Source of the DNA: Escherichia phage naswa
Direction: 5' to 3' (one strand)
Sequence record: MN850595.1
Length of the DNA stretch: 64,000 nt
Under the pieces are notes generated by a model. That model saw only the letters and a list, made by a program, of their open reading frames with translations. It was not told the origin of the DNA and ran no database searches. The position numbers and the translations under genes were made by a program. Below are positions 6,657 through 64,000 of the stretch, piece after piece (position 1 is the stretch's first letter; each line of letters starts with the position of its first letter).

Positions 6657-6663
6657 AAACGTG

Positions 6664-6692
6664 TTGACTTTACTCTAACTCCACAATATAGT
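6664..6692 (+). promoter_or_regulatory. sigma70-like promoter (TTGACT-N17-TATAGT)
   Basis: Hexamers read directly in the divergent intergenic region upstream of 6733. Confidence 0.45.
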
Positions 6693-6732
6693 GCACCCAT
6701 TCGAAAGAAAACTAACATAGGAGCACTTACTT

Positions 6733-7632: not shown

Positions 7633-7907
7633 CTATGATGAAGGCATGTGGTAATGTATATTACGTCGGTGAACATGTTCAGGCAGACAGTGTGTGGAAA
7701 TCTATTAAGTCCACCACTGACGATGCCTTTCTGAGTGGACTATGTTTCCCCAATCCGGGAGACATCCTCCCTCATCCTGGAGATTTTGTTGTCAACAAGA
7801 TGGACGGTTATACCGTGTGCCTGATGGTTGAAAAAATCTTTTTAGACACTAGACACAATCACCGTCTTGTGTTAAAATTTCAAGAATGTAAAATGACAAT
7901 TGCCTAA
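7629..7907 (+). CDS. hypothetical protein
   Basis: Track ORF 92 aa; ATGA overlap with upstream gene. Confidence 0.45.
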   Translation: MTMMKACGNVYYVGEHVQADSVWKSIKSTTDDAFLSGLCFPNPGDILPHPGDFVVNKMDGYTVCLMVEKIFLDTRHNHRLVLKFQECKMTIA

Positions 7908-7920
7908 GGAGACCTTACCG

Positions 7921-8277
7921 ATGTCTAAAGTTACTTATCGTGCAGCTATTTACTGCAATGAACACCCAATCAATAATGATGGTCACTGCCTTTTTAAAGA
8001 AAATCAATTGGGCTGTATTGTCCTCCCTGATGAAGGGGAAGGTTATCTGATTGCATTGACAGGGTTTGAACCTGAGGCTCTGGAAGCCAATCTGGACTAC
8101 CTGGTAGAAGAGGGTGCTGCAGACCTGGTTGCCAATGGCCTCTCCATAAGCCTTGACGAAGTAGAGCGCTTCATGGGCAATTACCGTGTAGTGCGTGAGT
8201 TTACTATCGAGGTGGAAACTCCCGAGTGGAGTAGCCATGAAACTAATGCCGAAGAAAAAGAAGAGGAGGTAGAATAA
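7921..8277 (+). CDS. hypothetical acidic protein
   Basis: Start moved to ATG 7921 (AAGGAG 8 nt upstream); N-terminus 'MSKVTYRA' repeated inside 5613..6656; Glu-rich C-terminus. Confidence 0.5.
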   Translation: MSKVTYRAAIYCNEHPINNDGHCLFKENQLGCIVLPDEGEGYLIALTGFEPEALEANLDYLVEEGAADLVANGLSISLDEVERFMGNYRVVREFTIEVETPEWSSHETNAEEKEEEVE

Positions 8278-21797: not shown

Positions 21798-24575
21798 ATG
21801 AGCATGTGGTCGTTCGATTTTGAGTCATCCGGTTTGCTGGAAGACCCAGATCTTTATTATCACTGCGGTCTGTTTAAAGAGCTGAATAAGAACCGTTTTA
21901 TGCTGTTCCTTCCTCTAAATGACCGCACACACTACTCCGGGGAGGATATAGAAAAGGCTAAGAACTTCATTCTGGCAAAGAAAACTCTTTATAAAGATTT
22001 TGAAGTTCGCATAGCAGATTTTTCGGAGTTGGAAGGTTGGCTTACAGGCAATTCTGACTGGTCACCAACAGCTTTGAACTGCCATAACTGCTACAGTTAT
22101 GACTTTATGCTGATGGAAAGATTATCCGGTATTCATTTTGATATGTTCCGTGATCCTAAATGCATGGGGACTATCAACGACCACCAGGTTAACCTGTTTG
22201 ATACGTTGGCGATGAGCAGAATCTTGTGGCCTGATCGCCCTTTACCAAAAGGTTGTCCGGACTCTGTATTCAACCCGGTTACTAAGAAAATGCAGCCTGT
22301 TGGTCCTCACGGCCTTATGGCATGGGGCTACGCCCTTGGTAACCAGAAAGTTCAAATTGATGACTGGCGCGATCTTCCGTTGTGGAAGTATGTGGATCGT
22401 GTATTCGAGGACGTTATCATCCAGGAGCTGCTCTGGAAAGAGCTGGTAGCGGAATCAAAAGGCGTATTCTACGGCAAATCTGACATGCAGAACTTTATGT
22501 ACGATCCAGCCAAAGAGAAGCCGAAAGGGTTCAAGAAAATCACCTGGAAGAACGCATTACGCCGAGGCATGCTGCAGCACTTCCTGATGGAGCTGCAGGC
22601 CCGTCAGGGTGTGTATTTCGACATAGATGGGGCTATTGCCTTACGTGACCGTTGCGATGCGTGGATGAAAGAGATCGCTGATCGTGTTGAACCTCAACTT
22701 CCTTTAAAAGAGTTGTCAATGTCTCAGCGGCCCAAGTTCCCTGAAAAGCCGTTTAACCAAGACGGGACAATCTCCAATAATGGTTGGAAATGGTTAAAAG
22801 ATAAGCTTGGCTATCCTGTAGACATGAGCGCTTTAGAATTCAAAGCCCCGCCTAAGCGAGCATTTACCTCCACAGGAGATGTCAGCAAGATGGGGATAAA
22901 ATGGTGCGAAGAGATGGGCTGCAAAGACCCCGACAAGATGGCTGATTTCTTGAGAGGTTATATTAAGGGCACCTCCACACCACAACCTTTACCTAAAGAG
23001 CTGATGGATCAGGCAATAAGTGATCTGCAGCAGAAGCGAATGCCTGACTGCAAGATACCTATGAAAATCAGCAATCAGGACGACATTAAGCGATACCTGA
23101 TCAGTGCTGGTTGGCTTCCGACAATGTGGAGAACTAAGGATGTAACTAAGGACAGCAAGAAGAAAGCTCTACCTGATGCAGATGTTGATGCACGAGTATA
23201 TGCATACATGGACGAGCTTTTAGAGTCAGAGTATTGTGACCTAATTATCAACTTCTGGAACAAAACTGATGCTAAGTTTCAGACAACAGTGCACAAGTTC
23301 CGAAGCTTTCCTAACTCCGAAAGGATTAAAAAGGAAGTGTTCGGGAAAATACGCAGAAAAGCCAGGGCACTTATTACTTCTCCGCAACTGAAAGATACGT
23401 TTGGACACCTATGTCCGAATCTTGAAAAATTGAACGGAGAGATGGCTAAAGATATCGTCTTGTGGTTATCATTGCGAAACCGCAGATCGGTCCTTGATCC
23501 AATCAAGGAGGATAAGGTTGATACTGGTCTTCTTAATCACCCACGTTTGAAGATTGACCATAAGCTTCCTGCTAAAAGCTCTGGATTAACAAACACTTCC
23601 CGACAGAAACACAGTATTTGTGCAAACATGCCTAAACCATCTCCTAAAGTGGTTATGGGTAAAGAGATGCGTAGCTTGTGGGGTGTTCCTCCTGGATACT
23701 TTGAGATCGGTATTGACGGGTCCAACTTAGAGCAGCTTATCGGGGCTTGGGGTGCCTTTGAGTTCGACAACGGCTTGTACTATGATGTTGTAAGTAACGG
23801 AGACGCACACCAAAACAATGCTGAAGCATATACAAAAGTAGCAGGCAGAGAGGTGTCTCGTAACGACGGTAAACCTATCACGTATGGGGTTATGTACGGG
23901 GCACAAAAAGATAAAGTTGCAGATATGCTGGATATCTCCCCAGAGTTGGGGCAAAGGGTGATCGATGCACTTTGGGATGCCAACCCCGGTCTTAAGGGGC
24001 GCAAAGAGGATCTGGAGAAATTCTGGGAAGCAACAGGTAAGAAGTTTATCTACTCTTTTGATGGTCATGCTATCTGGACCCGATCTAAACACTCTTTACT
24101 TAATGCATACCAACAAAATGGTGGTGCATCGCTGTGTGACTTAGTTGGGATACTCATGCACCACCAAATGGTGAAGCGTGGGTGGTACGATGAAGGTGTC
24201 CGTCGTATTATCTATTACCATGACGAATATCAGCTTCAAGTGCCTGACACACCGAAGTATAAGACTGTGTACACCTTCGACACAATTGAAGAACTGGAAG
24301 CATTTAAGGCAGAGCAGGAAGCCAAACTTCATGTGTTCGACGGTCATAAGTACAAAAAGGTACGCAAGGATGAGGACGGAAACGAAGTGGTTGACAGAGA
24401 CGGAAACACGGTGTACGATCCTATCCTGAACGATGACGGAAAGCTTGAACTTATCTGGAGCCCTGTGGGTGAAATGGTGGTGCATTGCTTCTGGCAAGCT
24501 TCTAAAATGATGGGAGTCCCGTTCCAGATCACAGGTGAATACTTGTGTGGTCGTAATTGGGGTGATTGTCACTAA
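21798..24575 (+). CDS. DNA polymerase, family A, with 3'-5' exonuclease
   Basis: Exo I 'FDFE'; Pol A motif A 'DGSNLEQL', motif B 'RNDGKPITYGVMYG', motif C 'YYHDE'. Confidence 0.85.
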   Translation: MSMWSFDFESSGLLEDPDLYYHCGLFKELNKNRFMLFLPLNDRTHYSGEDIEKAKNFILAKKTLYKDFEVRIADFSELEGWLTGNSDWSPTALNCHNCYSYDFMLMERLSGIHFDMFRDPKCMGTINDHQVNLFDTLAMSRILWPDRPLPKGCPDSVFNPVTKKMQPVGPHGLMAWGYALGNQKVQIDDWRDLPLWKYVDRVFEDVIIQELLWKELVAESKGVFYGKSDMQNFMYDPAKEKPKGFKKITWKNALRRGMLQHFLMELQARQGVYFDIDGAIALRDRCDAWMKEIADRVEPQLPLKELSMSQRPKFPEKPFNQDGTISNNGWKWLKDKLGYPVDMSALEFKAPPKRAFTSTGDVSKMGIKWCEEMGCKDPDKMADFLRGYIKGTSTPQPLPKELMDQAISDLQQKRMPDCKIPMKISNQDDIKRYLISAGWLPTMWRTKDVTKDSKKKALPDADVDARVYAYMDELLESEYCDLIINFWNKTDAKFQTTVHKFRSFPNSERIKKEVFGKIRRKARALITSPQLKDTFGHLCPNLEKLNGEMAKDIVLWLSLRNRRSVLDPIKEDKVDTGLLNHPRLKIDHKLPAKSSGLTNTSRQKHSICANMPKPSPKVVMGKEMRSLWGVPPGYFEIGIDGSNLEQLIGAWGAFEFDNGLYYDVVSNGDAHQNNAEAYTKVAGREVSRNDGKPITYGVMYGAQKDKVADMLDISPELGQRVIDALWDANPGLKGRKEDLEKFWEATGKKFIYSFDGHAIWTRSKHSLLNAYQQNGGASLCDLVGILMHHQMVKRGWYDEGVRRIIYYHDEYQLQVPDTPKYKTVYTFDTIEELEAFKAEQEAKLHVFDGHKYKKVRKDEDGNEVVDRDGNTVYDPILNDDGKLELIWSPVGEMVVHCFWQASKMMGVPFQITGEYLCGRNWGDCH

Positions 24576-24624
24576 TGTAAACTATCAACACATGGAAGTG
24601 TTGTTGAGCAAAGAGGAGACTTTT

Positions 24625-24909
24625 ATGGTAGTAGAACCAACAAAAACATTTACATCCATGACTATTCCTGTTATTATGCAGGTGGAGTGTGTTCAGGTAT
24701 CTCAAGTGTGGCCTGGCACCAAAATCCCGACAGGGCCTGATTTCTTTCAGGTTGGCAAAGTGTACAATGTCTGGAAGGCACCAGATTGTTACCCTTTCAT
24801 CAAAGATGACCGTGGGATGCTGTGGTATCTTGGAAATGATTTGACACTGCACCTTGGGAATGCTATTATTGCAGTATTCAGACTTAACAAGAAGGAGACT
24901 GATCAATGA
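24625..24909 (+). CDS. small protein, WY/WF paralogue group
   Basis: Start moved to ATG 24625 behind AGAGGAG; 'GKVYNVW...DDRGMLWYL' pattern shared with next two genes. Confidence 0.45.
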   Translation: MVVEPTKTFTSMTIPVIMQVECVQVSQVWPGTKIPTGPDFFQVGKVYNVWKAPDCYPFIKDDRGMLWYLGNDLTLHLGNAIIAVFRLNKKETDQ

Positions 24910-25133
24910 CGACTTTGGTTAAAGCTACCTTTGTAGAAGAAAAGATGACAGACCTGTCATTCTTTAAAGAAGGAAAGACCTACGAGGTTTATTACGATAA
25001 AGCTCGTGCAAATAAAATGATTAAAGACGAGGAAGGGGTTGCCTGGTTTATCTCCCATCTGGCAAACGGTGAGTATCATATCTACGGAACCACCCTGCTT
25101 GCCAAGTTTGTAGCTGTTGAAGAGGACCTATGA
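24906..25133 (+). CDS. small protein, WY/WF paralogue group
   Basis: 75 aa; 'GKTYEVYY...DEEGVAWFI'. Confidence 0.5.
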   Translation: MTTLVKATFVEEKMTDLSFFKEGKTYEVYYDKARANKMIKDEEGVAWFISHLANGEYHIYGTTLLAKFVAVEEDL

Positions 25134-25324
25134 AAGTAAAGTATCTGGCTGAGGGTATGAGTAGGTATTTCACCCTTGGTGAAGAATATTGGCCATTTAC
25201 AAGCAACGGCGATGTCTACGTGAAAGATAATTTCGGCACGCCATGGTTTTTGCACCCTAACGGGTTAGGGTATTCTATTTATCGCAGTGCAATGAGCGAC
25301 ACAACCCTTGCAGAGTTTGTATAG
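25130..25324 (+). CDS. small protein, WY/WF paralogue group
   Basis: 64 aa; starts MKVKYL; 'GEEYWPF...NFGTPWFL'. Confidence 0.5.
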   Translation: MKVKYLAEGMSRYFTLGEEYWPFTSNGDVYVKDNFGTPWFLHPNGLGYSIYRSAMSDTTLAEFV

Positions 25325-25334
25325 AGGAGGTAGA

Positions 25335-25706
25335 ATGTTAGTAAAAGGTACTCACACAGTCAAACAACGTATCGAAGTTGAGATCGATGACTGCGAGCTG
25401 AAGCATATTTTACGGTCATGTTCCAACGTTTTGCTCCTTAGTATTCTCCAGGAGCGAGCGGAGAACGAGTTCTTAAATGCACTGGCAGGCCGCCCTGGTG
25501 ATTTCTGTGTGCGTAAGCGTGGTGACAACAAGTCATGGCTGTGGGAGATAGACGCAGAATGGGATTACCATAAAAATGAGGGTATAGATGAACCTATTCG
25601 TGAATTGACGGACAACGAGGTTCAGATGTACAATGAAGTTTGTCAGTGGGCAAAAAGTCAACAAACTTATCTTGATCCTTGGTGGATGATCGAAAATAGT
25701 CGTTGA
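25335..25706 (+). CDS. hypothetical protein
   Basis: Start moved to ATG 25335 behind AGAGGAGG SD. Confidence 0.45.
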   Translation: MLVKGTHTVKQRIEVEIDDCELKHILRSCSNVLLLSILQERAENEFLNALAGRPGDFCVRKRGDNKSWLWEIDAEWDYHKNEGIDEPIRELTDNEVQMYNEVCQWAKSQQTYLDPWWMIENSR

Positions 25707-43929: not shown

Positions 43930-44349
43930 ATGAACATTAAATCTAATAATCCGGCATATAGCTTTGATAACGCTTTTTGTCACGGTCCGGCGGCGAAAGG
44001 ATTCGAAATCGATGGTAAACTAATTATTGTCAATGTTGACGGGGAAGAGGTTGCAGTATATCCGGTGGCAGACGTTAAAAGCCGTCTACAATGCCGCATG
44101 GATGTTACCGCCTATCAGCTTGATCCGGTCCGCATAGTTGCCCTGGTCCTGGAAGAAGAAATTAAAGCCATGCACCATAGCAACAGATTTATTGGTGACG
44201 CGCAGGATAATATGAAAGTATGCCGCCATAAAGTTAATGAAGTGCTTAAAGAGTACGGCTATAAAGATCTTATGATCAAACGCGAGGAAAAATTCCGCTA
44301 CCGTAACGACCTGGCAAATCGGATTTTTGAAATATACGAATCATTATAA
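43930..44349 (+). CDS. hypothetical protein
   Basis: Track ORF 139 aa; last gene of plus-strand arm. Confidence 0.5.
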   Translation: MNIKSNNPAYSFDNAFCHGPAAKGFEIDGKLIIVNVDGEEVAVYPVADVKSRLQCRMDVTAYQLDPVRIVALVLEEEIKAMHHSNRFIGDAQDNMKVCRHKVNEVLKEYGYKDLMIKREEKFRYRNDLANRIFEIYESL

Positions 44350-44367
44350 TTTTTTAACTGAATTATC

Positions 44368-44393
44368 AAGGGGCTTAGGCCCCTTTCTTTTTG
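44368..44393 (+). terminator. rho-independent terminator
   Basis: AAGGGGC-TTAG-GCCCCTT hairpin then TCTTTTTG. Confidence 0.6.
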
Positions 44394-44399
44394 TCTGCT

Positions 44400-46840
44400 C
44401 TTCCCCCCCTACCATAAACGGCCCTACCTGGCAAGTGGAATAATTGACGAGCCATCAATCCCACACACTGTACAAATATACATGGAAAATAACTATTGCA
44501 TAATTTTTCATTGTGTGGTAGCAAGGCCATTTTTACCCGTTTTACCTTCCAAAATTGCACGTAATGCCGCTATTGCACAAATTTTAACCTGATGCACATC
44601 TCCAATATCTTGTCAACAACTAAAAATCTTTATAAGTCATGCACTTACATAACCACAAAAGCGTGTTCTACGTGAAAAATCGAGTATAACTATAGCCGCC
44701 AGATCTCAGAATTTACGTACGCTCACCAGTCTATAGCCTGCTAAGTATTTATTCCAACCATAGAATAACGGAATAGTCAATACCTGCATAAAATAATTAT
44801 TCGTGTAAACTGCATAACATAAATCGGCTAGGATGTCAACATTTTTCGTAAACAGCTCGAAATTATAACGGTGAGTTATAATAAACAGAGAAATCTTTAG
44901 TCGTCTAATGTTTACTGTACATTACTATACTGACTGGAATCATTAGATGACTAAGAGAAAGATAAGAAATCATTAACAATGCAATTGTTTTATTCGTAAC
45001 AATAAGGCAACTATGCAAACGAATGGCATGGCGCGACGGAGTCGCGACATAATATAAAAGCAGTAACCATCACCCCCGTGATAGTTTGTCTGCAAACTAT
45101 TAATCAGATCATAGTTGCCTTGTATTTAGTTAATCATGACATAACAAGCAGGGCAACTATAGATCTGCTAATAGTTGCCCTGCTTTTATATTATGTCATG
45201 CTAATTATAATCAGTGCGATTATTGTCATGTATAATTATTGTCATGCAAACGAATGGCATGGCTGATTATCGGTGTGTAAACAGTCAATCATGTAAATGG
45301 TTAGCATGTGAACAATCAGGAATGTAAACAATCCAGTGTGTAAACTAATAGGTGTGTAAAAGTGTCATGTTGTGTCAGTTAGGTCACATTATGTCAGACA
45401 AGTTTTTCTCCTCTTTGTCAAGTGCTGCATGAAAAATTTACAAGCTTGTATGGTAGCATTTTTGCGGCCCTGTTTACATTCAGGAGTGTATGTATAATCC
45501 TTGGTGTGTGGGCGTTTAGACGTCTAGACGGTTGGAAGTATGCAGGTCAATATCTAATCTATTGGCTGCTAACTATATCCCACACAAATGATAAGAAATA
45601 TAATTGTTATATGCGTAAACTGTAACTCATGTTATCAATCCCTGTATGTATCGCCAGTGGTGCGCATAATGGGTATTATGTTAAATTGCCCGTAATGATA
45701 ACTATTCTCACAATGATAGGTATTCTCATTCACCCCCACAAGATAGGTTGCAAATGTTGTGCCACTGTGTGAACGGCCTAGCCTATTAATTTGCCTCACT
45801 GCCTTGATATTTGAGAATTGTTATAAGAATGAGAAGTATTCCCATTTCGTCCGCCTGGCAGCACTCCAGTCGCTACCGGCTCCTGACAGGGCAGCTCTCC
45901 TGTAGGTCAGGTCAAAATCGTGGTAGAATTGGGCCTATTCAGATATTTCTGGCTGACTCTTCAGGTCTGTGTGAGAAAAGCCAACCTTTCCGGCGGCGGG
46001 GAGGGGTCAATTAAAAAATTTACGTGGTGTATGAAGCGCTCTTCAGGTAAGGCAGGTATTATGTGATGAAACCCTCTTCAGGCAATGATATTTGTGGGTG
46101 TGATATTTGCTGGAAAGCCAGATATGACGGGACTCCCGGCGGGGCAGGGGTAGTACAGACAGGGAAAATATGGGGGATGTAGTTGGGGAAATTGATCAGG
46201 CAGGTAGAGTATGGAATATGTTACAAGTATGTTAAATATGGAGGTTGAATATCTGCAGGATTTGTGTGTAAAATCAAAGACTTAAGTGGTGTTGTGGTAT
46301 TTTCTATAAATAATTCAAGTTTAATAGGTAATATTTGTCTCTATCCACTTTGTGTGGTAAACAGATTCAGATGAAATTGGTTTACAAGTGTATACATAAT
46401 ATACAAATTAAAGATACAAGAAACCCCCCTCCCCCTTCGGCTACCATTCACCTTTTCCTCTGACTGGTACTTAAACACTTATTCAGACTCTTCAGGTTAT
46501 CACCCATATATCATATGGCAGTGACTGGTGTCCTCCGGCCCCTCTTTCGTCACCCGTCCGCTTCGCCATGCTAATGCCATAGCCAATGGTTCGGTTGTTC
46601 ACCCTGTTCACTCAGGTGTATCTCCATACCCCTTCAAACCGAAGAGAACAGAAAACCCGAATTACTCGGTAAAAGAAAAGAGAAGAACTTAATTTTATCA
46701 GGATAGGCAAGAATGTCAAGGCATGACTGCTCACTAAACAAGCAAACAGTCATGTGTGGTAGGTAAGTGATTGTGGTGGTAGGAAATTTAGTTGAAAGAT
46801 GTGTTATAGGTGCGCTTCCAGCACTTTAGCCGGGCAGCTA
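44400..46840. other. ~2.4-kb non-coding convergence region with several repeat families (candidate origin / packaging / terminus region)
   Basis: No long co-directional ORF; 20-bp direct repeat at 45013 and 45244; ATAGTT(G/T) palindromes 45082-45182; six TGTAAAC-like iterons 45276-45361; CTCTTCAGG x5 from 45957. Confidence 0.5.
45276..45361. repeat. six iteron-like repeats (TGTAAAC core, 14-17 bp period)
   Basis: Cores at 45276, 45293, 45307, 45323, 45339, 45355. Confidence 0.5.
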
Positions 46841-46848
46841 ATTGTGTG

Positions 46849-47064
46849 TCAGTCTAGCGGTTCATCCTCTACTTCACTGAAATCAATGTTCATGGTCTCT
46901 TCCCAACCATCGATCTCAGCACAAGAGTGGAGTTCTTTAGGGTTTACTCCCAAAGCCTCAGCAACAGAGTCTATATTTAACACCTCTGGCAGGTATGATT
47001 CATCGAATTCAAGGTAAATCAGGCCACGAGTGTTGTCAGCTCCACCAAATATCTCTATCTTCAT
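46849..47064 (-). CDS. hypothetical small protein
   Basis: Track ORF 71 aa; starts MKIEIF like other small proteins on this arm. Confidence 0.45.
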   Translation of the reverse strand: MKIEIFGGADNTRGLIYLEFDESYLPEVLNIDSVAEALGVNPKELHSCAEIDGWEETMNIDFSEVEDEPLD

Positions 47065-47185
47065 AAAATCTCCTCTGGGAATGAGAGTGTGAACAGGGTT
47101 TTATACGTTCCAATGCACAAGAATTATACACGTTTGCCTCTTCAGGCCATGCTTTAGCATGAGGAACCTGTGTGGGCTCGGTGCT

Positions 47186-47398
47186 TCATAGTCTACCACC
47201 TCTGAACTCTTCGTGCTCAGGCATAATAGAGAACCAGATATCTACGATGTCCTCCCACGTCAGGTCATCAGCCTCAGGATCTGTCTGGGACGAAGATGAA
47301 GAGTCCTCAGAATCTAAGTTTCCCTCTTTAACTGGCTCATCCAAGGGACATATGGTCACTCCTTCGGATGTCTCTTCAGATGCATGTGTGTTGATCAT
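47186..47398 (-). CDS. hypothetical acidic small protein
   Basis: Track ORF 70 aa; Ser/Asp/Glu-rich. Confidence 0.4.
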   Translation of the reverse strand: MINTHASEETSEGVTICPLDEPVKEGNLDSEDSSSSSQTDPEADDLTWEDIVDIWFSIMPEHEEFRGGRL

Positions 47399-47700
47399 GT
47401 TCCACCCGTGAGTATTCCGGCAACAGCCGCTATGGAAGTAATGATCATCAGGATCACCACTAAAACTTCAGACAATGTTCTCATTGTGTATTCCATATTC
47501 TCCAAACTGTGTGTGGATACTATCACGGGAGCGGTAATGTGTCAACAGCAACGCCGCGAGGGTTTGGTTAAAATCCGAGCGTATGGTGATTTGGGTCAAA
47601 ACGGACGTGCGTTCTCGCTACGCTCGAAAGAGAGACTTGTTTGTAGAAAGCTCTTAAACGCTCTGTAACGAGATTATCTGTCCAAGGTATGCAATCGTGC

Positions 47701-47734
47701 ACCAAATAAAGAAAAGGACGCCACAGAGCGTCCT
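47701..47734 (-). terminator. rho-independent terminator (minus strand)
   Basis: AGGACGC-CACAGA-GCGTCCT hairpin followed on minus strand by TTTTCTTTATTT. Confidence 0.5.
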
Positions 47735-47758
47735 AGGTGTCTTAAATTTGATATTTTG

Positions 47759-48058
47759 CTATACCCATGAGGGCTTATCAAGGTTGGAGTAGCTGAAAGG
47801 TGTCAAAAGGTGACTGTCAAAATCCCTCAAACTATCCAAATCTTTTTCCTCGTCCTGACACCATCTGTGCCTACATTTATTGTTGTAGTGCATAGAATGC
47901 ATAGCGTTCTGCAACTTAACAGGTACAAGTGATTCAGGAGTAGATAGTATTGTTGGGTATGCCAGAACCACCTCAAACAGTGGAAACACATCGAAACTAA
48001 AGTCTACCTCTGCAGAGGTTGATGGCATGTAGGAGTATTTAGCCGCCTTTGTAGACAT
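47759..48058 (-). CDS. hypothetical protein
   Basis: Start moved to internal ATG behind GAGGTGG (track start 48070). Confidence 0.4.
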   Translation of the reverse strand: MSTKAAKYSYMPSTSAEVDFSFDVFPLFEVVLAYPTILSTPESLVPVKLQNAMHSMHYNNKCRHRWCQDEEKDLDSLRDFDSHLLTPFSYSNLDKPSWV

Positions 48059-55687: not shown

Positions 55688-56158
55688 CTACTTAAATAGT
55701 AGTTCAAAATAGTGCAAAATTAACAGAAGTTGAACTACACCTAGTGCAACGGCGAGTATGTTAATCTTAGAATCGAAAAACTTCTTAACTTTTACTCTAA
55801 AAGGTTCCTTAATGTCCTTTACGATCCTATCTATAGATGACCTCATATCTCTGATTACCATCCTGAACATTAAAGACGGATGCTCCCCCATCTCTGTAAC
55901 GGAATCGAAAACATACTCTCTTCGGTCATAAGGGCCGCCAGCTCTGCGTATTAACCTCTCCACAGAGACCTCGAACGTCACACCTGTAACGTAATCATCT
56001 ATAACAAGTCGTGACGGGTCTTTACCTTTACTATCAAGAGGTATCAAAGTTATCTTTCCAGATTTTGTTAAAATTTCCCCTTTTTCAAGCAAGGTGTACC
56101 AATGCTCTCTGCCAAGACTGTTGAGGCACGTTTTTACATATTTAACAAACATCGTCAC
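55688..56158 (-). CDS. hypothetical protein with C-terminal TM anchor
   Basis: 156 aa; C-terminal 'ILAVALGVVQLLLILHYF'. Confidence 0.5.
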   Translation of the reverse strand: MTMFVKYVKTCLNSLGREHWYTLLEKGEILTKSGKITLIPLDSKGKDPSRLVIDDYVTGVTFEVSVERLIRRAGGPYDRREYVFDSVTEMGEHPSLMFRMVIRDMRSSIDRIVKDIKEPFRVKVKKFFDSKINILAVALGVVQLLLILHYFELLFK

Positions 56159-56826: not shown

Positions 56827-57360
56827 CTACAAATGGCAACTGAGGGTGTCAAGAAAATTATCCCGTTCTTTCTCAGAGTTTTCATGGGTGTAGCTGAAAA
56901 ACATATCGAGAATAACCTTATTGATATATTCCAGCTCCTCTGTGTTCAGATGCTTAGCAGGATCTACAATGACATCCCAAATATCATACAGACCACACTC
57001 ATGATACCCATAACGCCACTCAATTGTCAAGCTGAGCGGCAAATCTTTACCGTCACAAACAACCTTCCATCTACATATGTTGGTATCTGGTCGTATCTGT
57101 GCACGGTACACCTGTACAAAATCCAATTTGAATTTGAGGTACTCGTCATACAATTTAAGCACAAAGCTCTCGATTTGTGGAGACACTTTTGCAGCAAACT
57201 GTGCGTATTTGTACTTGCACTGGATGATCTTTCTGCGTTTTGCAGTTAAATTTTTTGCCGCCAGTTGTTCTTCAGTGTATCTCCACCTACGATCAACAAA
57301 CGCAACAGGGTCTTTGTCCCCATAGAGGTCTTCCCAGTTAATCAGAAGCATACCTGTCAC
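56827..57360 (-). CDS. hypothetical protein
   Basis: Track ORF 177 aa. Confidence 0.5.
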   Translation of the reverse strand: MTGMLLINWEDLYGDKDPVAFVDRRWRYTEEQLAAKNLTAKRRKIIQCKYKYAQFAAKVSPQIESFVLKLYDEYLKFKLDFVQVYRAQIRPDTNICRWKVVCDGKDLPLSLTIEWRYGYHECGLYDIWDVIVDPAKHLNTEELEYINKVILDMFFSYTHENSEKERDNFLDTLSCHL

Positions 57361-57590
57361 TCCTCCACAACTTCAAGGCCTTTACCGCCTCGCTCTGGCA
57401 GATTACTTAAAGATAGGTAATACATATAATCAGGAGAGATCCTGCCAGACTCTGCACCTGCAGCTAGTAAATCCTTCCCTTTAACCAGGACAACATTCTC
57501 GTTTGCAGATAGCCGTTTTGCTTCCACAATTTTACCAACACAGTCAACCAAGGAAGGGTACCCTAAATCTGTAAGAAATTTAACTTTCAT
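57357..57590 (-). CDS. small protein, MKVK family
   Basis: 77 aa; MKVKFL start, 'VLVKGKDLLAAGA' core, '...GLEVVEE' end. Confidence 0.55.
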   Translation of the reverse strand: MKVKFLTDLGYPSLVDCVGKIVEAKRLSANENVVLVKGKDLLAAGAESGRISPDYMYYLSLSNLPERGGKGLEVVEE

Positions 57591-57629
57591 GCTACCTCCT
57601 GCTTCTACCGTCCCTGGTAAGATAAATTA

Positions 57630-58031
57630 TTACTGAACAGAGCGCGGGGCTAGGAAGGATAACTCTTCTAAAGAGAAGATTTCATTTCCTACCACCCAAG
57701 TTGCTGGATCATCTGGGTCAACAGGCTGGATAATCATTACCTCATCCGCCTCGCACACACGTTTCCCACCTATAGTAGCGGAGTCAGCCACTAGCATACG
57801 AGGCTCTTCAGAAATGCACAGGTAACCTCCTCGGCCCACTGTTCCTTCCACAGGATCCTGCCCTTTGACCACAATGAATACCTTCTCTCCTGTGGCGATA
57901 TTACTTTGCACACTAACAGTTTGACCAACTTTAGATGTACCGATCTTGGTGGCTTCAAACATTAAATCCCGAATTACTGTTGCATAGTTGCCGGACACTT
58001 TCTTACCTTCTTTAGTAATCTCAATCTTCAT
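57630..58031 (-). CDS. hypothetical protein
   Basis: Track ORF 133 aa; MKIEITKEG start. Confidence 0.5.
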   Translation of the reverse strand: MKIEITKEGKKVSGNYATVIRDLMFEATKIGTSKVGQTVSVQSNIATGEKVFIVVKGQDPVEGTVGRGGYLCISEEPRMLVADSATIGGKRVCEADEVMIIQPVDPDDPATWVVGNEIFSLEELSFLAPRSVQ

Positions 58032-58303
58032 AATCTAGGCTCCTTAAATGAATCTATGTAATCAATTAAATCCCAAGCATCGCGATGGGCTGTCAGAGGG
58101 TATACTTCTCCGAGAGGGATCATAGCAATAAGTCTATCAAAAACCCAGTCTGGACGCAACATTTTATGGTGATATTCCCACTCACCTTCCACAGATTTTT
58201 TCTGAGTGATCAGGATCTCTGTGTAGTGTTTCGACTGTCTTGAGTAGATTGAAAATGACTTGTACATAAATGACCCCCTCTTGTTGAAAACAACAATACA
58301 CAA
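58028..58303 (-). CDS. hypothetical protein
   Basis: Track ORF 91 aa; ATGA overlap. Confidence 0.5.
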   Translation of the reverse strand: MCIVVFNKRGSFMYKSFSIYSRQSKHYTEILITQKKSVEGEWEYHHKMLRPDWVFDRLIAMIPLGEVYPLTAHRDAWDLIDYIDSFKEPRL

Positions 58304-58588
58304 CTACCAGGTTACTGTCAAGTAGGCAACCGTATTATTTTTCTCTGGGGAGATGCCAACAACATCTACCTGCAGACCTCCTGCCCTTAAATCTCCAACA
58401 ATGTGCGGGAAGTAATCTGAGAGATGCGATGGTAGATTTATCGAAAATCCGCACCCCAGAAAGCCTGCTAACGCTTTATTTTGTATCTCCCCTACAATCG
58501 CATCATAAATAGAGTTAAGCTCGTCAGGAAGCGTTACAGGACGTTTTAGCGCTAACTGGTGTAATTTGTCCTTAGCACTCATTTTCAT
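58304..58588 (-). CDS. hypothetical protein
   Basis: Start moved to ATG 58586-58588 overlapping upstream stop (ATGA); track start 58618. Confidence 0.45.
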   Translation of the reverse strand: MKMSAKDKLHQLALKRPVTLPDELNSIYDAIVGEIQNKALAGFLGCGFSINLPSHLSDYFPHIVGDLRAGGLQVDVVGISPEKNNTVAYLTVTW

Positions 58589-59118
58589 TTCAGGTCTACC
58601 TCTGGAGGTGCCAACCACATAAATGGCGGCAAGTCTAAACGGTTTTTCTTATCCCAGACAAAATATGCATATGCTTGCCCGTCAGTTCTGCCATTTGATT
58701 GAAAAGATGGACGCTTAGATATTGTGATCACAGTGGTAGGTGCATTATCAAGCCACCATTCAAATCTGGCTTTGCTTTCCAGAAAATTAAGACGCAAAAG
58801 CATAATAACTACGTCAGCATCTTTCAACGCCTTGTCTACAAACTCACGAGCCAAACTGTATGGTGGGTTGGTGATAATACAGTCAACATGGTTGTATTCT
58901 GTATTCAGATAGTCAACACCTTCTTGGATTTCTCCCCATGCAGATCCTAACGGCATACGTGAGTAGAACACACCTGAGGCACTATTCCTGCAAGGCTCTA
59001 AATAGGTCCAGTCTTCTGGGAACGGAATAAGGTCATACAGCCCTTCTGCACACCACTCCGGTGTCACATACTCATCGTAAGCGTTACGTTGTTCATCAGG
59101 TTTTCTAGCACAAGTCAT
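58585..59118 (-). CDS. small N6-adenine DNA methyltransferase (phage Dam-like)
   Basis: 'TNPPYS' catalytic motif; upstream 'YVTPEW...LEPC' segment as in compact phage Dam-type MTases; 177 aa. Confidence 0.6.
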   Translation of the reverse strand: MTCARKPDEQRNAYDEYVTPEWCAEGLYDLIPFPEDWTYLEPCRNSASGVFYSRMPLGSAWGEIQEGVDYLNTEYNHVDCIITNPPYSLAREFVDKALKDADVVIMLLRLNFLESKARFEWWLDNAPTTVITISKRPSFQSNGRTDGQAYAYFVWDKKNRLDLPPFMWLAPPEVDLK

Positions 59119-59127
59119 GCAAATCTC

Positions 59128-59160
59128 CAGATCATAAAAGCCCTCCGAAGAGGGCTTTAG
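59128..59160 (-). terminator. rho-independent terminator (minus strand)
   Basis: AAAGCCCTC-TTCG-GAGGGCTTT hairpin followed by TTTTAT on minus strand. Confidence 0.5.
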
Positions 59161-59169
59161 AATTAATGT

Positions 59170-60219
59170 TTAAGCTTCTTCGACAATTCCTGCACCCAGG
59201 ATTTTTTCATTGAGCTCTTTTGCTGTTTTAATAATATTGTCCACCAGACGCTTGCGAGTCTTATCTTTTACCTTAACCTCTTCACCGCCGTTCAGGGTTG
59301 TCTTCAATTGGGACAGAATGTCTTGAAGTTCAACGACAGAGAATCGCTGCAGATCTTCTGAAGTAATCTCACTCAGGGCAATTCTGACGGTCTCGCCACT
59401 TTCCATCTGCAGATTCAGGAACACAGTGTGAACATCACCTTTCGAACCACCCGCTTTTGCAGATTCAACAGCATGAACTAACTCATCTAAAGATGTGCAC
59501 TGGTGAATCTCCGGAAGACCTGCTTCACCTAACACGCCTTCTTCATCACCTTTTGCCAGAAGCTTTTTCGGTTTTTGTCCGTTCTGGATGCGTTGTATGT
59601 TGCCTTCATCCAGAATAATAGCTCCAGTGCGTGCTGCCAGCTCTTCTCCGTCCAACCACACTTCGCCACCAGCTGTGATGGATGCGATCTCATCTTCTGT
59701 CAGCACCCCACCGTAGTATTTTTCGATCAGGCGTTCAAAACGTTTTTTCCAGTAGCTGACCTGAGTATTCATGTTCACACCGTTACCATAAGTGCCACCT
59801 TGATAGTAGTGGAACATAAACTCTGTGTCCGGAGCCACAGTACGTTCTTTACAACCAAGCCATAAGATTGTTCCAGCAGAGCAGCACATCCCTTCAGCAT
59901 GTGCAACAACGCTTGCCTGAGACTCTCGGAATGCCTGCAGATAAGCCATTGCAATGTGCACGCAACCCCCAGGGCTATTGATGATCACCCGAATGCTTTC
60001 TTCCGGCTGAGCCATACGGATCGTCTGCAGACGAGACATATGATCTTGTAAGTCTTCCAAATCGTCGATATAAAGAACGTGGTCAACAACAGGTGTTGGG
60101 TAGCTGTATGTTTCCATGATACCGCCCGGCATACCAAACATTTTATTACTCATAGGTTCGAAACCGTTCTGTTTTTCTTTCATGCCGTGTACCATGGTTC
60201 TGCGAGGTGTTAAATTCAT
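59170..60219 (-). CDS. ClpP/S14-like serine peptidase with C-terminal extension
   Basis: 'VIINSPGGCV' and 'GMCCSAGT' resemble ClpP oxyanion/Ser regions; ~150-aa extra C-terminal region. Confidence 0.6.
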   Translation of the reverse strand: MNLTPRRTMVHGMKEKQNGFEPMSNKMFGMPGGIMETYSYPTPVVDHVLYIDDLEDLQDHMSRLQTIRMAQPEESIRVIINSPGGCVHIAMAYLQAFRESQASVVAHAEGMCCSAGTILWLGCKERTVAPDTEFMFHYYQGGTYGNGVNMNTQVSYWKKRFERLIEKYYGGVLTEDEIASITAGGEVWLDGEELAARTGAIILDEGNIQRIQNGQKPKKLLAKGDEEGVLGEAGLPEIHQCTSLDELVHAVESAKAGGSKGDVHTVFLNLQMESGETVRIALSEITSEDLQRFSVVELQDILSQLKTTLNGGEEVKVKDKTRKRLVDNIIKTAKELNEKILGAGIVEEA

Positions 60220-60279
60220 GAGAAATCCTTAATATTGGAAGTTGAAAGCTATTTATTTAAACCTGATTCACATTTACCT

Positions 60280-60591
60280 TTATTTAGCAATCACTATGGA
60301 ATACTTACGATTGTCAGAAGCATCACAACTCAATGATTGCCAGTCTACCACATACCACGTATCATTGTCAACAATTACTTTATCGCCTGTTCTGTAGCAA
60401 GTGCTGCTTTCAATAATTCGAGACTCGATAAAGAATCTGTGTCGGCGCTCACGTAGCAACGCTAAGTTAATTATATTACCACCGCTGTCCTTGGTCCACA
60501 CATTCTTGGATCCCTTATTTGCCAAAATTGTCTCGCCGTTATAGACAAACAGGCAGTATATTTTATTCAGTTTCTCTTGTATTGTAGCCAT
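60280..60591 (-). CDS. hypothetical protein
   Basis: Track ORF 103 aa. Confidence 0.5.
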   Translation of the reverse strand: MATIQEKLNKIYCLFVYNGETILANKGSKNVWTKDSGGNIINLALLRERRHRFFIESRIIESSTCYRTGDKVIVDNDTWYVVDWQSLSCDASDNRKYSIVIAK

Positions 60592-60619
60592 ACTGTCCTT
60601 CTCTCTGTTTTGTCCGATA

Positions 60620-60648
60620 ATAATATCTAAAGCTTACCTATTTGTCAA
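60620..60648 (-). promoter_or_regulatory. sigma70-like promoter (TTGACA-N17-TATTAT, minus strand)
   Basis: Hexamers read on reverse complement upstream of gene starting 60591. Confidence 0.5.
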
Positions 60649-60692
60649 CAACTGTTTTAGATATTTAAGGGTGGAATAACCACCCTTCTGTA

Positions 60693-61481
60693 TTACTCGG
60701 AAACAGGGGTCCAAATATGATTTGCACGATCCTCAATAAGATTGAGTGCGATTTGACGACCCAACCCGGAACGAACGACATCGTCTGGACTATCAAAGCT
60801 GATCATTCCAACCTCAGGATCTGGATGACGAGTAAAGAAATCCGTCACCCATGCAAGGCCAGATTTACCAGGGATGTCACGTTGGCTATTATCACCCATA
60901 ATTACAAGGGTGGCTTGATCAGAGATCCTTGTGATAATTGACAACATTTCTTCAGGGTTAGTTTGCTGTGCCTCGTCAATCAGGACAAAGCATCGCTCAT
61001 CGAAACTACGACCACGAATGCTTTCAACTTCACAAATCTCGATACGACTGTTCTGACCGTCTCCCAGCATTGCGGCAAAAGCACCTTTGCCAACACGACG
61101 ACAAATCGTGTCCATCATGCTTCGAAGATAGGGCCACAGTTTCTGCATTGCATTTCCGGGTTTAAATCCTGAAGTCTTTCCTGTCTGGACGTAAGGACGT
61201 GCAACAATGATCTTATCAATCTCGTTCTTACGCAGAAGATCACCTGCATATGCAGATGCCATAAATGTCTTACCGGATCCAAACACACCGTTTACAATAA
61301 TAATCTTACGTGACCCTAGATAATCAAGATACTTTTGCTGCTTCTTATTCATTGGTCGGAGAGCTGGAGCGGTGTGCTCTCTTTCGTCAGCAAATTTCTC
61401 AGCAGCCTTACGCAGGCGATCAGATTTGCGAGCCTCTCTAGCTTCATCACGCATGCGTTTTGTTTCTTTAGCTCGACCCAT
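60693..61481 (-). CDS. phoH: PhoH-like ATPase
   Basis: Walker A 'GVFGSGKT'; 'FVLIDEAQ' Walker B; PhoH-like size and order. Confidence 0.75.
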   Translation of the reverse strand: MGRAKETKRMRDEAREARKSDRLRKAAEKFADEREHTAPALRPMNKKQQKYLDYLGSRKIIIVNGVFGSGKTFMASAYAGDLLRKNEIDKIIVARPYVQTGKTSGFKPGNAMQKLWPYLRSMMDTICRRVGKGAFAAMLGDGQNSRIEICEVESIRGRSFDERCFVLIDEAQQTNPEEMLSIITRISDQATLVIMGDNSQRDIPGKSGLAWVTDFFTRHPDPEVGMISFDSPDDVVRSGLGRQIALNLIEDRANHIWTPVSE

Positions 61482-61519
61482 GTTGGGACTCCTTTCAGAT
61501 TGAGATGTGCCAAGTACTT

Positions 61520-61870
61520 TTACTGCAACAGTTTTTCAATAGCCGCTTCCATGCTGCTTGCAACAGCCTGAACTCGGATATTCATCTCTTCTTGGTGGAT
61601 CAGCTCCTTAAGCTCTTTAATGGTAAATTCTTTAGAGAAACCTTCCACCATAATCTTGTGCAAGGCTTCTTGCGTGTCTACTTGCAAGAACTTTTCCAGT
61701 TTGTTGGCAGAGGCTTCTAAATCAGCCCGAATACGAGGGTCATCTGTGCGATTCAGCATTAGGCGTAAGCCATCAAGATTAGTAGAAATAGCATCTGCAT
61801 GTTGAGTAACTAACCGTGGCAAAATGAGATCTACAAACTTATTAGCCAAATCGATACGTTCTTGTGTCAC
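61520..61870 (-). CDS. hypothetical protein
   Basis: Track ORF 116 aa; GTG start overlaps stop of upstream mini-ORF. Confidence 0.5.
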   Translation of the reverse strand: MTQERIDLANKFVDLILPRLVTQHADAISTNLDGLRLMLNRTDDPRIRADLEASANKLEKFLQVDTQEALHKIMVEGFSKEFTIKELKELIHQEEMNIRVQAVASSMEAAIEKLLQ

Positions 61871-61980
61871 TGTTGCACCCCCTCTTCATCTTCATGATGT
61901 TTCTTTTCACGCTTGTGTTTTTTCTTAAGCTCAAGCGCAATCTCTTTCTTGTACGCCTTCTTCAAGGCTTTTTTAGCCAT
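61867..61980 (-). CDS. Lys-rich mini-protein (37 aa)
   Basis: ATG behind GAGGAGG; 'MAKKALKKAYKKEIALELKKKHKREKKHHEDEEGVQQ'; below track cutoff; directly downstream of consensus promoter. Confidence 0.4.
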   Translation of the reverse strand: MAKKALKKAYKKEIALELKKKHKREKKHHEDEEGVQQ

Positions 61981-62009
61981 TTGGCACCTCCTCTGCTTTC
62001 ATTACGACA

Positions 62010-62042: not shown

Positions 62043-62516
62043 TTAGTCAACCTGAACCCAACCATCTGCTACCTTTTTAAACATTCTTTGGTTATCACTG
62101 CCTCTAAAGGGTTTTTTGGTGGGGTTATCTTTTTCGTACTTACCGTCCATAATGTAATCAACACTATCTTTAATGTAATCGGGGACTTCTTCAAACAAAT
62201 ACCCTGTGTACACCCAGATAGTTTTTGTGTTGCCGAAGTGTTCACGGATAGCGCGAATGATCGAGTACATACCATCAATATTGTAAGGCGCTAAAGGTTC
62301 GCCACCGCATAATGTAACGCCAGTAATGTGTTTCGGCTCTATAGAGTGAAGTATACTCTCAATAGTGTCATTTGTTAACGGTTCCCCTTTAGCTGGTGAC
62401 CAAACACTTTTGTTTTGGCAACCGACGCAGTGATGTGGGCAACCAGAACAGAACACCGTTGTCCTAATGCCTGGGCCGTCAACCATGCTACACTCTATAA
62501 TATTAACAACATTCAT
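62043..62516 (-). CDS. nrdG: anaerobic ribonucleotide reductase activating protein
   Basis: Radical-SAM cluster 'CSGCPHHCVGC', 'VDGPGIRTTVF', 'CGGEPL', 'IWVYTGY', 'RGSDNQ' as in NrdG. Confidence 0.8.
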   Translation of the reverse strand: MNVVNIIECSMVDGPGIRTTVFCSGCPHHCVGCQNKSVWSPAKGEPLTNDTIESILHSIEPKHITGVTLCGGEPLAPYNIDGMYSIIRAIREHFGNTKTIWVYTGYLFEEVPDYIKDSVDYIMDGKYEKDNPTKKPFRGSDNQRMFKKVADGWVQVD

Positions 62517-62749
62517 TCCTTATCCTCTTTTAGGTAAGGATATTCAGGCCCACAATAAGCTCTATCCAAGAAAACAGCTTCTTCCCCTCTGGAATCAGTA
62601 GATCTATAATACCCATCACCATGGTAACTAACGAACCAGTGGCACCCATCATCGCTTTCTACTGTTGTGGCTCTGTCCGAATGAAAGATAATTTCGTAAT
62701 CCTTACCGAATGTAAACCATCTGTTAGCTTTTACACAGACACCTATCAT
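62513..62749 (-). CDS. hypothetical small protein
   Basis: Track ORF 78 aa; ATGA overlap with nrdG. Confidence 0.45.
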   Translation of the reverse strand: MIGVCVKANRWFTFGKDYEIIFHSDRATTVESDDGCHWFVSYHGDGYYRSTDSRGEEAVFLDRAYCGPEYPYLKEDKE

Positions 62750-63069: not shown

Positions 63070-64000
63070 TCATTTACCACAAATCTTCTTGTATACCTCT
63101 TCTACCGTGTCAAACACTTCAGGCCTGTAGTAGAAAAACTCAGTGCTACCGTCAAATTTTACAGGAAAGTTTATTTTATACTTGCTCAAGGCCTTATGCA
63201 CAGATTTTTCTAAATCTACCATGTTTTGAGTTGATCCGCTCCATGTTTTTACTACGTGAAGAGTGTGGACACCTGCGCCAGATTTACGAGCACTGTTAAG
63301 CACCTCATTTTTCCTCCTGTGCATTTTAACGCATACACCGATTTTCATAAGTGTTGGCACTTCTAAGTCATCAACCATAATGTAGAGTTTACCGTACTCA
63401 TGAGATAAGAATCCATTTTGTGCGCATTTACAGCAGCCACGACCACTTTTTAGGTTATTAGGTTTAGCAGACCACTTATACCTACAAATTTTGCACCTAC
63501 ATTGCACTTTTGTGTTATCATTGGCAATTTTCTCTAATATTTCTATGTCTGGGTTGGCTTTGTGGATAATTGCAGCGTGCTCCTTATGGGTTAACGCTTG
63601 ACTTTTCCCACGTCTTAAGTCATAGCACTCTGGGCAGCCGTTTCTTTGGTATAAGTGGTTTTCAGGGTATTGTTCAAACACACCGTGTTCAGGGCAAACA
63701 ATTTTTACAGGCGTTCTCATGTTCGCATATTTGACTAATGAGTAATCGTACTTGTCCCCATGAACAGCCATAGCCTCTTTTATGAACTCTTCAGTGTTCT
63801 TTTTCGCTGACCCACCACACCTTGGACAACCATGATTCTTGAAAGCATGTGCCACAGGGGTTTGCCAGAACTCACCGTGCTCAGGACAAATTATACACAC
63901 AGGTGTCTTGTTGTTTTTATACTCCACTTTGAAGTAATCATATTTGTCACCATGTATAGTCTGAGCTTTTTCTATAAACTCTTCGGTTGTTAGTCTTCTC
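63070..64000 (-). CDS. homing-endonuclease-like protein (N-terminus beyond window end)
   Basis: Reading frame open to window edge; repeated 'HGDKYDY...CPEHG.F.Q.P..H...GCP.C' modules; C-terminal 'KIG...RR..E...LEK..H..L...GSTEFF' resembles GIY-YIG/T5orf172-type domain. Confidence 0.45.
   Translation of the reverse strand, partial: RRLTTEEFIEKAQTIHGDKYDYFKVEYKNNKTPVCIICPEHGEFWQTPVAHAFKNHGCPRCGGSAKKNTEEFIKEAMAVHGDKYDYSLVKYANMRTPVKIVCPEHGVFEQYPENHLYQRNGCPECYDLRRGKSQALTHKEHAAIIHKANPDIEILEKIANDNTKVQCRCKICRYKWSAKPNNLKSGRGCCKCAQNGFLSHEYGKLYIMVDDLEVPTLMKIGVCVKMHRRKNEVLNSARKSGAGVHTLHVVKTWSGSTQNMVDLEKSVHKALSKYKINFPVKFDGSTEFFYYRPEVFDTVEEVYKKICGK

Follow-up and report, generated by a model that had tools for sequence, protein, structure and literature searches.

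A ClpP-fold protein with an orphan C-terminal domain in an rV5-like coliphage: capsid-maturation enzyme, Clp subunit or accessory peptidase?

Is the ClpP-like protease of Escherichia phage naswa a capsid-maturation enzyme, a subunit powered by the host Clp ATPases, or a peptidase of another kind? Its gene lies in a stretch of 64,000 nucleotides (sequence record MN850595.1, hereafter the window), where an open reading frame (ORF) of 349 amino acids, running from ATG to TAA on the minus strand, occupies positions 59170-60219 exactly. It is the ortholog of ORF122 (gp122) of phage rV5 and of inoa_76 of Escherichia phage inoa, and in over 100 Vequintavirus genomes the gp122 ortholog bears the label 'ClpP ATP-dependent protease subunit'. 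The literature on phage ClpP-like genes (rV5, ICP1, KVP40, Vequintavirinae) yielded annotations and one speculative remark, and no experimental work was found in it. Long annotated and widespread, the gene is not a discovery in itself; what is new here is a corrected functional picture and an orphan C-terminal domain. We favour, with a probability of roughly 0.55, a non-structural accessory serine peptidase of the ClpP fold that would act independently of an ATPase.

The ClpP-fold core and its C-terminal extension

A preliminary description of the locus had recognised a ClpP/S14-type core, and profile and structure searches bore this out. Pfam CLP_protease (PF00574) matched with E=2.1e-12 and 47.7 bits, above its gathering cut-off of 20.2; phrog_5410 matched the full-length protein (E=2e-155, residues 24-345) and phrog_1827 residues 52-200 (E=2.6e-40), and phmmer against the PDB retrieved about 100 solved ClpP chains. 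In an AlphaFold model of the monomer, built on 23 homologs, residues 45-212 have a predicted local distance difference test score (pLDDT) above 90, and the top Foldseek matches of this model were all solved ClpP structures, with a target-normalised template modelling score of about 0.7 and 17-23% identity. The ClpP fold of the core is confirmed, far beyond chance. The parts of the protein are the following.

59170..60219, minus strand: coding sequence of the ClpP-fold protease, 349 amino acids (ORF call, Pfam, PHROG, and annotated Vequintavirus orthologs 99-100% identical)
60088..60219, minus strand: N-terminal region, residues 1-44 (pLDDT below 50 at residues 1-4 and 11-43; conservation; alignment to E. 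coli ClpP)
59584..60087, minus strand: ClpP-fold catalytic core, residues 45-212, including the handle helix at 147-169 (pLDDT above 90; Foldseek; phmmer)
59878..59880, minus strand: Ser114 codon TCT, candidate nucleophile, aligned with Ser97 of E. coli ClpP (invariant in the alignments)
59809..59811, minus strand: His137 codon CAC, aligned with ClpP His122 (invariant in the alignments)
59662..59664, minus strand: Glu186 codon, at the position of ClpP Asp171 and preceded by Gly184-Gly185 (alignments)
59491..59583, minus strand: flexible linker, residues 213-243 (pLDDT below 50 at 223-238; gap-rich, poorly conserved columns)
59191..59490, minus strand: family-specific C-terminal alpha/beta domain, residues 244-343 (F293, E297, L298 and R322 nearly invariant)

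Residues 1-20 are poorly conserved and Met23 is a possible alternative start; a Shine-Dalgarno sequence is found only before Met1. The N-terminal region carries a family-specific FG-x-PG ... S-Y-P motif, and G29, Y40 and P41 are nearly invariant.

When the expected Ser-His-Asp triad was aligned, two of its members were found in place, Ser114 and His137 being invariant across every alignment made; the Asp171 position is held by Glu186. Among the accessory phage proteins this third position takes one of three residues: the rV5 group has Glu, the PVP-SE1/4MG/Hena1 lineage has Gln, and Asp is found in ICP1, phi-Grn1 and Sugarlandvirus. Glu also stands there in three ClpP-type prohead proteases encoded beside capsid genes, those of Gordonia phage Azula (gp4), Bacillus phage PfEFR-5 and Vibrio phage K233, which have Ser-His-Glu and, like the naswa protein, no ATPase-docking pocket. 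Glu could replace Asp as the third triad residue.

Beyond the core the chain continues for about 140 residues, which the preliminary description had called charged and coiled-coil-like. The extension is real and its charge is mildly above that of the core (D+E 17% and K+R 12%, versus 13% and 9%), but the coiled-coil reading was rejected, because in both the full-length and the domain-only models the chain passes from a disordered linker into a hairpin and short helices, none longer than 25 residues. The Gly- and charge-rich linker varies in length and sequence. In both models the domain behind it comprises a helix at 244-257, a beta-hairpin at 267-281 and helices at 295-309 and 322-342; its pLDDT reaches 80-93 across the hairpin and the two final helices, with block means mostly of 83-93 over about 270-340 and of 63-72 for residues 241-270. 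The idea that this domain is common to other architectures was likewise rejected, since a profile search of 1.84 billion representatives returned 6 clusters, all of them ClpP fusions or fragments except one spurious leucine-rich-repeat protein; a search of BFVD with the domain returned one probable family member only. On the models and searches, the C-terminal domain is conserved, predicted to be folded and restricted to this protein family.

Genomic setting, relatives and the prohead question

The gene appears to be transcribed as part of its own short unit, whose elements are listed below.

60620..60648, minus strand: sigma70-type promoter-like site, TTGACA-17-TATTAT, 11/12 matches, equal to rV5 P121 (sequence and rV5 Table S4)
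60280..60591, minus strand: upstream ORF of 103 amino acids, rV5 ORF121-like, phrog_5456 of unknown function (same predicted transcription unit)
60226..60230, minus strand: Shine-Dalgarno sequence AAGGA, 6 nucleotides 5' of the ATG (sequence reading)
59133..59158, minus strand: intrinsic terminator with a 9-bp GC-rich stem, a UUCG loop and a U-run, equal to rV5 t122 (fold and rV5 Table S4)

The terminator hairpin stands directly 3' of the stop codon, with a folding energy of -14.7 kcal/mol (z = -3.85). Promoter P121 and terminator t122 had been predicted independently by the authors of the rV5 genome paper, who found a late-promoter motif only in the structural region (PMC3606486). This motif has no exact match in the window, and matches with one mismatch occur there at chance level. 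The neighbours of the gene (a PhoH-like gene, a methyltransferase gene and nrdD/nrdG) give it the non-structural setting of the accessory class. The earlier placing of the gene among early genes is in keeping with the sigma70-type promoter, the terminator, the lack of a late motif and the nucleotide-metabolism neighbours, and stands as a prediction.

A similar setting was observed in other phages. A tblastn search with the core gave 1113 phage records, and the context of selected homologs was inspected; no capsid gene stood beside the ClpP-like homolog in any of these contexts (ICP1, phi-Grn1, PaP1, Sugarlandvirus, ABPH49 and PVP-SE1). In ICP1 the order is nrdA/B, PhoH, two small genes, the ClpP-like gene (326 amino acids; TUST1-15_01050) and ligase. 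The homolog lies between frd and uvsX in the KVP40-like phage phi-Grn1, among small genes near dCMP deaminase and ligase in PaP1 (gp041), and between dNMP kinase and holin in the T5-like Sugarlandvirus, and in Acinetobacter phage ABPH49 and Salmonella phage PVP-SE1 PhoH is followed by the ClpP-like gene and then by a DNA methyltransferase gene.

The homologs of ICP1, PaP1, KVP40/phi-Grn1 and Sugarlandvirus are short accessory phage 'ATP-dependent protease' proteins (phrog_1827), all uncharacterised, with which the naswa core shares 26-35% identity, the loss of the docking pocket and inter-ring sensor, and the non-structural setting. Unlike the naswa protein, most of them lack a conserved C-terminal domain (PaP1, 182 amino acids; Sugarlandvirus, 203 amino acids; phi-Grn1, a charged tail only); the ICP1 protein has a long extension, yet it was not retrieved by the C-domain profile at E<=0.001.

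The phage head-maturation proteases ranked above cellular ClpP in both PHROG and NCBIfam. PHROGs 1684, 94, 2976 and 133, all head-maturation families, matched with E from 8e-22 to 4e-14, and the best curated match was NF045542, 'head maturation protease, ClpP-related', at 60.3 bits against a cut-off of 120; NF045540 reached 51.9 bits against 475. In a neighbour-joining tree of 15 sequences, phage proteins and cellular ClpP were split with 99% bootstrap and the three prohead enzymes grouped together with 100%, apart from the accessory proteins, whose monophyly received 38%. By these comparisons the protease resembles the ClpP-type prohead proteases more than cellular ClpP. Such prohead proteases act without an ATPase, and the simplest reading of the family is as kin of these enzymes redeployed as a non-structural gene, not as a captured host clpP. 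The protease shares with the head-maturation enzymes Ser-His-Glu and the missing pocket, and some of those enzymes also have long C-terminal extensions; it differs from them in that their genes lie between portal and capsid genes and its own lies elsewhere, in a core identity of 22-27% and in its separate tree cluster.

In order to place the gene relative to the head genes, statements beyond the window were drawn from the conserved architecture of the genus (inoa and rV5), since the window belongs to a mosaic rV5-like phage. The inoa head genes occupy 18.5-25.5 kb, and the protease gene is found at 56.4 kb on the opposite strand; in rV5, where the two again lie on opposite strands, the head genes are at about 53-58 kb and ORF122 at 90.6 kb. 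The head module is thus some 31-33 kb away, in line with the earlier statement that no capsid or portal gene is nearby. Capsid genes immediately beyond the window, or missing catalytic residues, had been named as observations that would overturn the preliminary description; no capsid genes were found just past the window, and Ser and His are present.

The rV5-type head module is self-contained. Besides the portal, the decoration protein and a major capsid protein of gpE type, it encodes an XkdF/Peptidase_S78_2 protein (134 amino acids, E=6.9e-17) and a protein of 325 amino acids. ICP1 shows this arrangement too, with an XkdF protein (E=7.5e-10) that adjoins the scaffold; the ICP1 XkdF protein is 40% identical to the rV5-type XkdF protein, and both have the DAHG and GLSI motifs. 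The 325-amino-acid protein is homologous to the ICP1 scaffold (E=1e-11), and the ICP1 scaffold and coat proteins alone have been shown experimentally to form procapsid-like particles (PMC10002752). Among phages of related genera, the protease detected in virions of phage W70 was W70_136, of phrog_1530 (PMC11370258), which is the PHROG of inoa_20, and that in virions of phage CB7 was CB7_5, encoded beside a VOG1355 protein (PMC7344957), VOG1355 being the VOG of inoa_19 too. The virion protease of these phages is the S78-type protease of the head module (phrog_1530/VOG4722). The mass spectrometry (MS) table of rV5 virions, with 19 proteins, includes gp60-62 and gp64 and does not include gp122 (PMC3606486).

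We then weighed the possibility that the protein is a second capsid (prohead) protease, or a processor of internal or ejected proteins, with the C-terminal domain targeting it to the procapsid as scaffold C-termini do. Its best curated and PHROG matches are ClpP-related head-maturation proteases, Ser-His-Glu with a missing pocket is common to the capsid-adjacent enzymes, and the layout of protease, linker and C-terminal helices resembles protease-scaffold fusions, which are known from lambda (C/Nu3) and P2 (gpO); absence from mature virions is, moreover, what one expects of a prohead enzyme. Against this, the NF045542 score is half of its cut-off, the gene lies on the other strand, 31-33 kb from a head module that already has a scaffold and an XkdF/S78-type protease of the kind seen in virions, it has its own sigma70-type promoter and terminator and no late-promoter motif, and in the tree the accessory proteins stay outside the cluster of the three sampled prohead enzymes. 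T4-type phages have the prohead protease gp21 and T5 has pb11, and the homologs in T4-like and T5-like phages, as elsewhere, sit among nucleotide-metabolism, replication or lysis genes; in ICP1 the coat and scaffold make their particles without the ClpP-like protein. For these reasons, and because gp122 is absent from the rV5 virion proteome and an S78-type protease was found in related virions, it is unlikely that the protease encoded at 59170-60219 is a capsid-maturation enzyme, and the earlier view that its context does not support a prohead role is strengthened.

Host Clp ATPases and the proposed mode of action

The preliminary description had also suggested an interaction with host Clp ATPases. 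The E. coli K-12 ClpP sequence was taken from the genome and aligned by two methods, which agreed. In common with cellular ClpP (MEROPS S14), to which it is 21-23% identical, the core has the fold, the handle helix with the Gly-rich strand and the NSPGG oxyanion segment, and its Ser and His fall in register. In E. coli ClpP the pocket that docks the IGF/LGF loops of ClpX/ClpA is formed by Y60, Y62, F82, I90, M92, F112 and L114, plus L48/F49. Their equivalents in the phage protease are R77, I79, E99, H107, E109, T127 and A129, so that six of the seven aligned residues are polar, charged or small instead of hydrophobic, most of them nearly invariant in the family; the L48/F49 positions fall within a 5-residue deletion in helix B or opposite polar residues. 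The inter-ring sensor Glu169/Arg170 is replaced by Gly184/Gly185 and its partner Asp134 by Asn149, again nearly invariantly. Helix A and the axial loops are unrecognisable: residues 1-43 are predicted to be disordered in the monomer model, a Pro-rich YSYPTPV stands at the position of helix A, and the first modelled element is a strand at 46-51. The NCBI curated ClpP models gave 21-39 bits against cut-offs of 228-361, among them the TIGR00493 equivalog (33.2 bits versus 308.6), PRK00277 (38.2 versus 249) and PRK12553 (39.2 versus 228). With pocket and sensor substituted and the curated ClpP models failing, these alignments make docking on host ClpX/ClpA unlikely, and the suggestion of such an interaction is not upheld. 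A phage MoxR-like AAA+ ATPase as partner is a weak idea, since the docking pocket is missing.

Somewhat less probable to us than a capsid role is that a ring of the phage protein caps a host ClpP heptamer, as ClpP1 does in ClpP1P2, re-targeting or poisoning it, or that the phage protein is a decoy with little catalysis of its own. It is established that in asymmetric ClpP1P2 complexes the ATPase docks on one ring only; the handle region is well conserved (H-x-Y-Q-G-G-T-x-G), making ring-ring contacts conceivable, the P. aeruginosa ClpP1/ClpP2 heterocomplex chains (9ndj) are among the best PDB sequence matches and give the longest alignments, and the third triad position can hold Glu, Gln or Asp. 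The residues of the inter-ring ion pairs, however, are all neutralised, and Ser114, His137 and the NSPGG oxyanion region are strictly invariant, which speaks for autonomous catalysis. Least probable of all is a genuine ClpP tetradecamer powered by host ClpX/ClpA and redirecting host ATP-dependent proteolysis, for which speak the Pfam match over its cut-off, solved ClpPs as top structural matches, the handle helix and Gly-rich strand and the annotation in most GenBank records, and against which stand the lost pocket, sensor, helix A and axial loops, the low scores of the equivalog and subfamily models and an added extension of some 140 residues that, going by ClpP structures, would leave the core on the ATPase-docking face.

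The favoured reading, an accessory peptidase independent of an ATPase, would work as follows. Host sigma70 RNA polymerase would transcribe the protease gene early or in the middle of infection, in a two-gene unit with the 103-amino-acid ORF that ends at its own terminator. The protein would assemble into ClpP-like rings with an active site of Ser114, His137 and probably Glu186, and would cleave unstructured or specifically recruited substrates without ClpX/ClpA or another unfoldase. The linker should exit the core where the C-terminus of ClpP lies, which in ClpP structures is the ATPase-docking face; since it would leave on that face, the orphan C-terminal domain at its end is probably a built-in module for the recognition of substrates or partners. 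Candidate substrates are host proteins, in takeover or counter-defence, or non-virion phage proteins. That the host is the target of phage ClpPs, which are patchily distributed, has been put forward as speculation in a comparative-genomics survey of jumbo phages (PMC7824862).

Use of the fold in this manner would not be without parallel. The clan-SK proteins SppA/S49 (including lambda gpC), NfeD/STOPP and the SDH-type proteinase use the ClpP fold without an unfoldase; their likeness to the phage protease concerns the way in which it may work. Their models scored below cut-off (NfeD1b_N, 19 bits versus 40; SDH_protease, 15.7 versus 31.3; Clp_like_SDH, 24 versus 250), and SppA/S49 and NfeD rely on a Ser-Lys dyad, unlike the phage family with its invariant His137.

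Several points weigh against an accessory peptidase. Catalysis, oligomeric state, expression timing and substrates are all inferred; the promoter, the terminator and the 'early' assignment are sequence predictions, and the list of docking-pocket residues rests on the established ClpP structural literature and is not the output of a tool. The Gln at the third triad position in the sister lineage suggests that activity may be weak or dependent on assembly. Absence from mature virions is compatible with a transient role in the procapsid, which prohead proteases usually leave, and the prohead kinship together with the layout of protease, linker and C-terminal helices also fits a capsid-targeted enzyme. 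The argument from context is not absolute either, since at least one product of the 'early' block, rV5 gp133, was detected in virions.

A broader proposal, which we hold to be doubtful, is that the rV5-, ICP1-, PaP1-, T4- and T5-like lytic phages share a widespread, unrecognised class of ATPase-independent ClpP-fold proteases, derived from prohead enzymes and acting early in the cytoplasm, where they would destroy host defence, nucleoid or proteostasis factors, with the C-terminal domain of the rV5/PVP-SE1 proteins as substrate receptor. In a variant of it, the ring could cap host ClpP in order to re-target it. Should an autonomous cytoplasmic protease indeed be at work, phages would here have turned a capsid-type protease to host takeover or counter-defence, for which there are few parallels. 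It would also be a tractable target: only one conserved gene is involved, the catalytic-dead mutant to make is clear, and the coliphages can be grown on E. coli K-12. If the gene encodes a housekeeping peptidase or is redundant, the finding is an ordinary one. In either case, the label 'ATP-dependent ClpP protease subunit', copied over hundreds of phage genomes, implies a partnership with ClpX/ClpA that the sequence does not support, and its correction prevents wrong inferences on how phages use host proteolysis.

Neighbouring genes and other observations in the window

Over the 5 kb around the protease gene (positions 57000-62000), the window matches Escherichia phage inoa, an rV5-like Vequintavirus, with 100% identity, and some 100 further rV5-like genomes with 98-99%. 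Compared with database genomes the window is a mosaic: next to the full identity with inoa at 57-62 kb, nomo and 'Campylobacter phage C12' are 99.6% identical to it at 1-6 kb, and the best match at 40-50 kb, EmilHeitz, reaches only 97.8% with gaps. Some 16-19 records titled 'Campylobacter phage' (e.g. C12, C14 and A140) share about 99% identity with rV5-like phages of E. coli, and are probably mislabelled or contaminant sequences.

The protease had no defence-system match in PADLOC, and the upstream 103-amino-acid ORF matched neither Pfam nor PADLOC. This gp121-like ORF was considered as a conserved partner of the protease and rejected, since it is confined to Vequintavirus. In inoa and several sister records it (60280-60591, minus strand) is labelled 'PhoH-like protein'; the real PhoH-like gene lies at 60693-61481, and the label appears to be an annotation slip from this neighbour. 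On the other side, the next gene after the ClpP-like one in Vequintavirinae is always a DNA methyltransferase gene (58585-59118, minus strand, in the window; 4421-5101 in PVP-SE1; 4723-5265 in ABPH49). In PVP-SE1 and ABPH49 the two genes overlap at the stop codon of the protease, whereas in the rV5 group the terminator stands between them.

Two nearby ORFs carry structural labels. The rV5 gp133 ortholog (55688-56158, minus strand; 156 amino acids; phrog_7821, 'virion structural protein') has a C-terminal transmembrane-like segment and is encoded 11 genes downstream of the protease, within the non-structural block; its detection in rV5 virions by MS rested on only 2 peptides, and it may belong to the virion or be ejected, or else be a contaminant from membranes. 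A 78-amino-acid ORF between the anaerobic ribonucleotide reductase genes (62513-62749, minus strand) is called 'putative minor capsid protein' in rV5 and inoa, a label that is doubtful as it has no Pfam support. Beside nrdD, a 285-amino-acid ORF (63070-63927, minus strand) contains repeated CPEHG...GCP-x-CGG motifs; in inoa a 38-amino-acid fragment annotated as anaerobic ribonucleotide reductase follows it, and rV5 has no ORF of similar size there, which suggests insertion of a mobile element, such as a homing endonuclease, within nrdD or close to it.

Outside the window, the large terminase of the inoa record (23110-25540) is annotated as two pieces with an endonuclease gene between them, consistent with the terminase-gene intron discussed in the rV5 paper. 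Within the window, the GC skew changes sign at about 6000-8000 and 44000-48000, marking switches in the direction of transcription. The inoa counterpart of the region at about 44-47 kb contains some 2.5 kb without annotated genes, which could be a regulatory or origin region.

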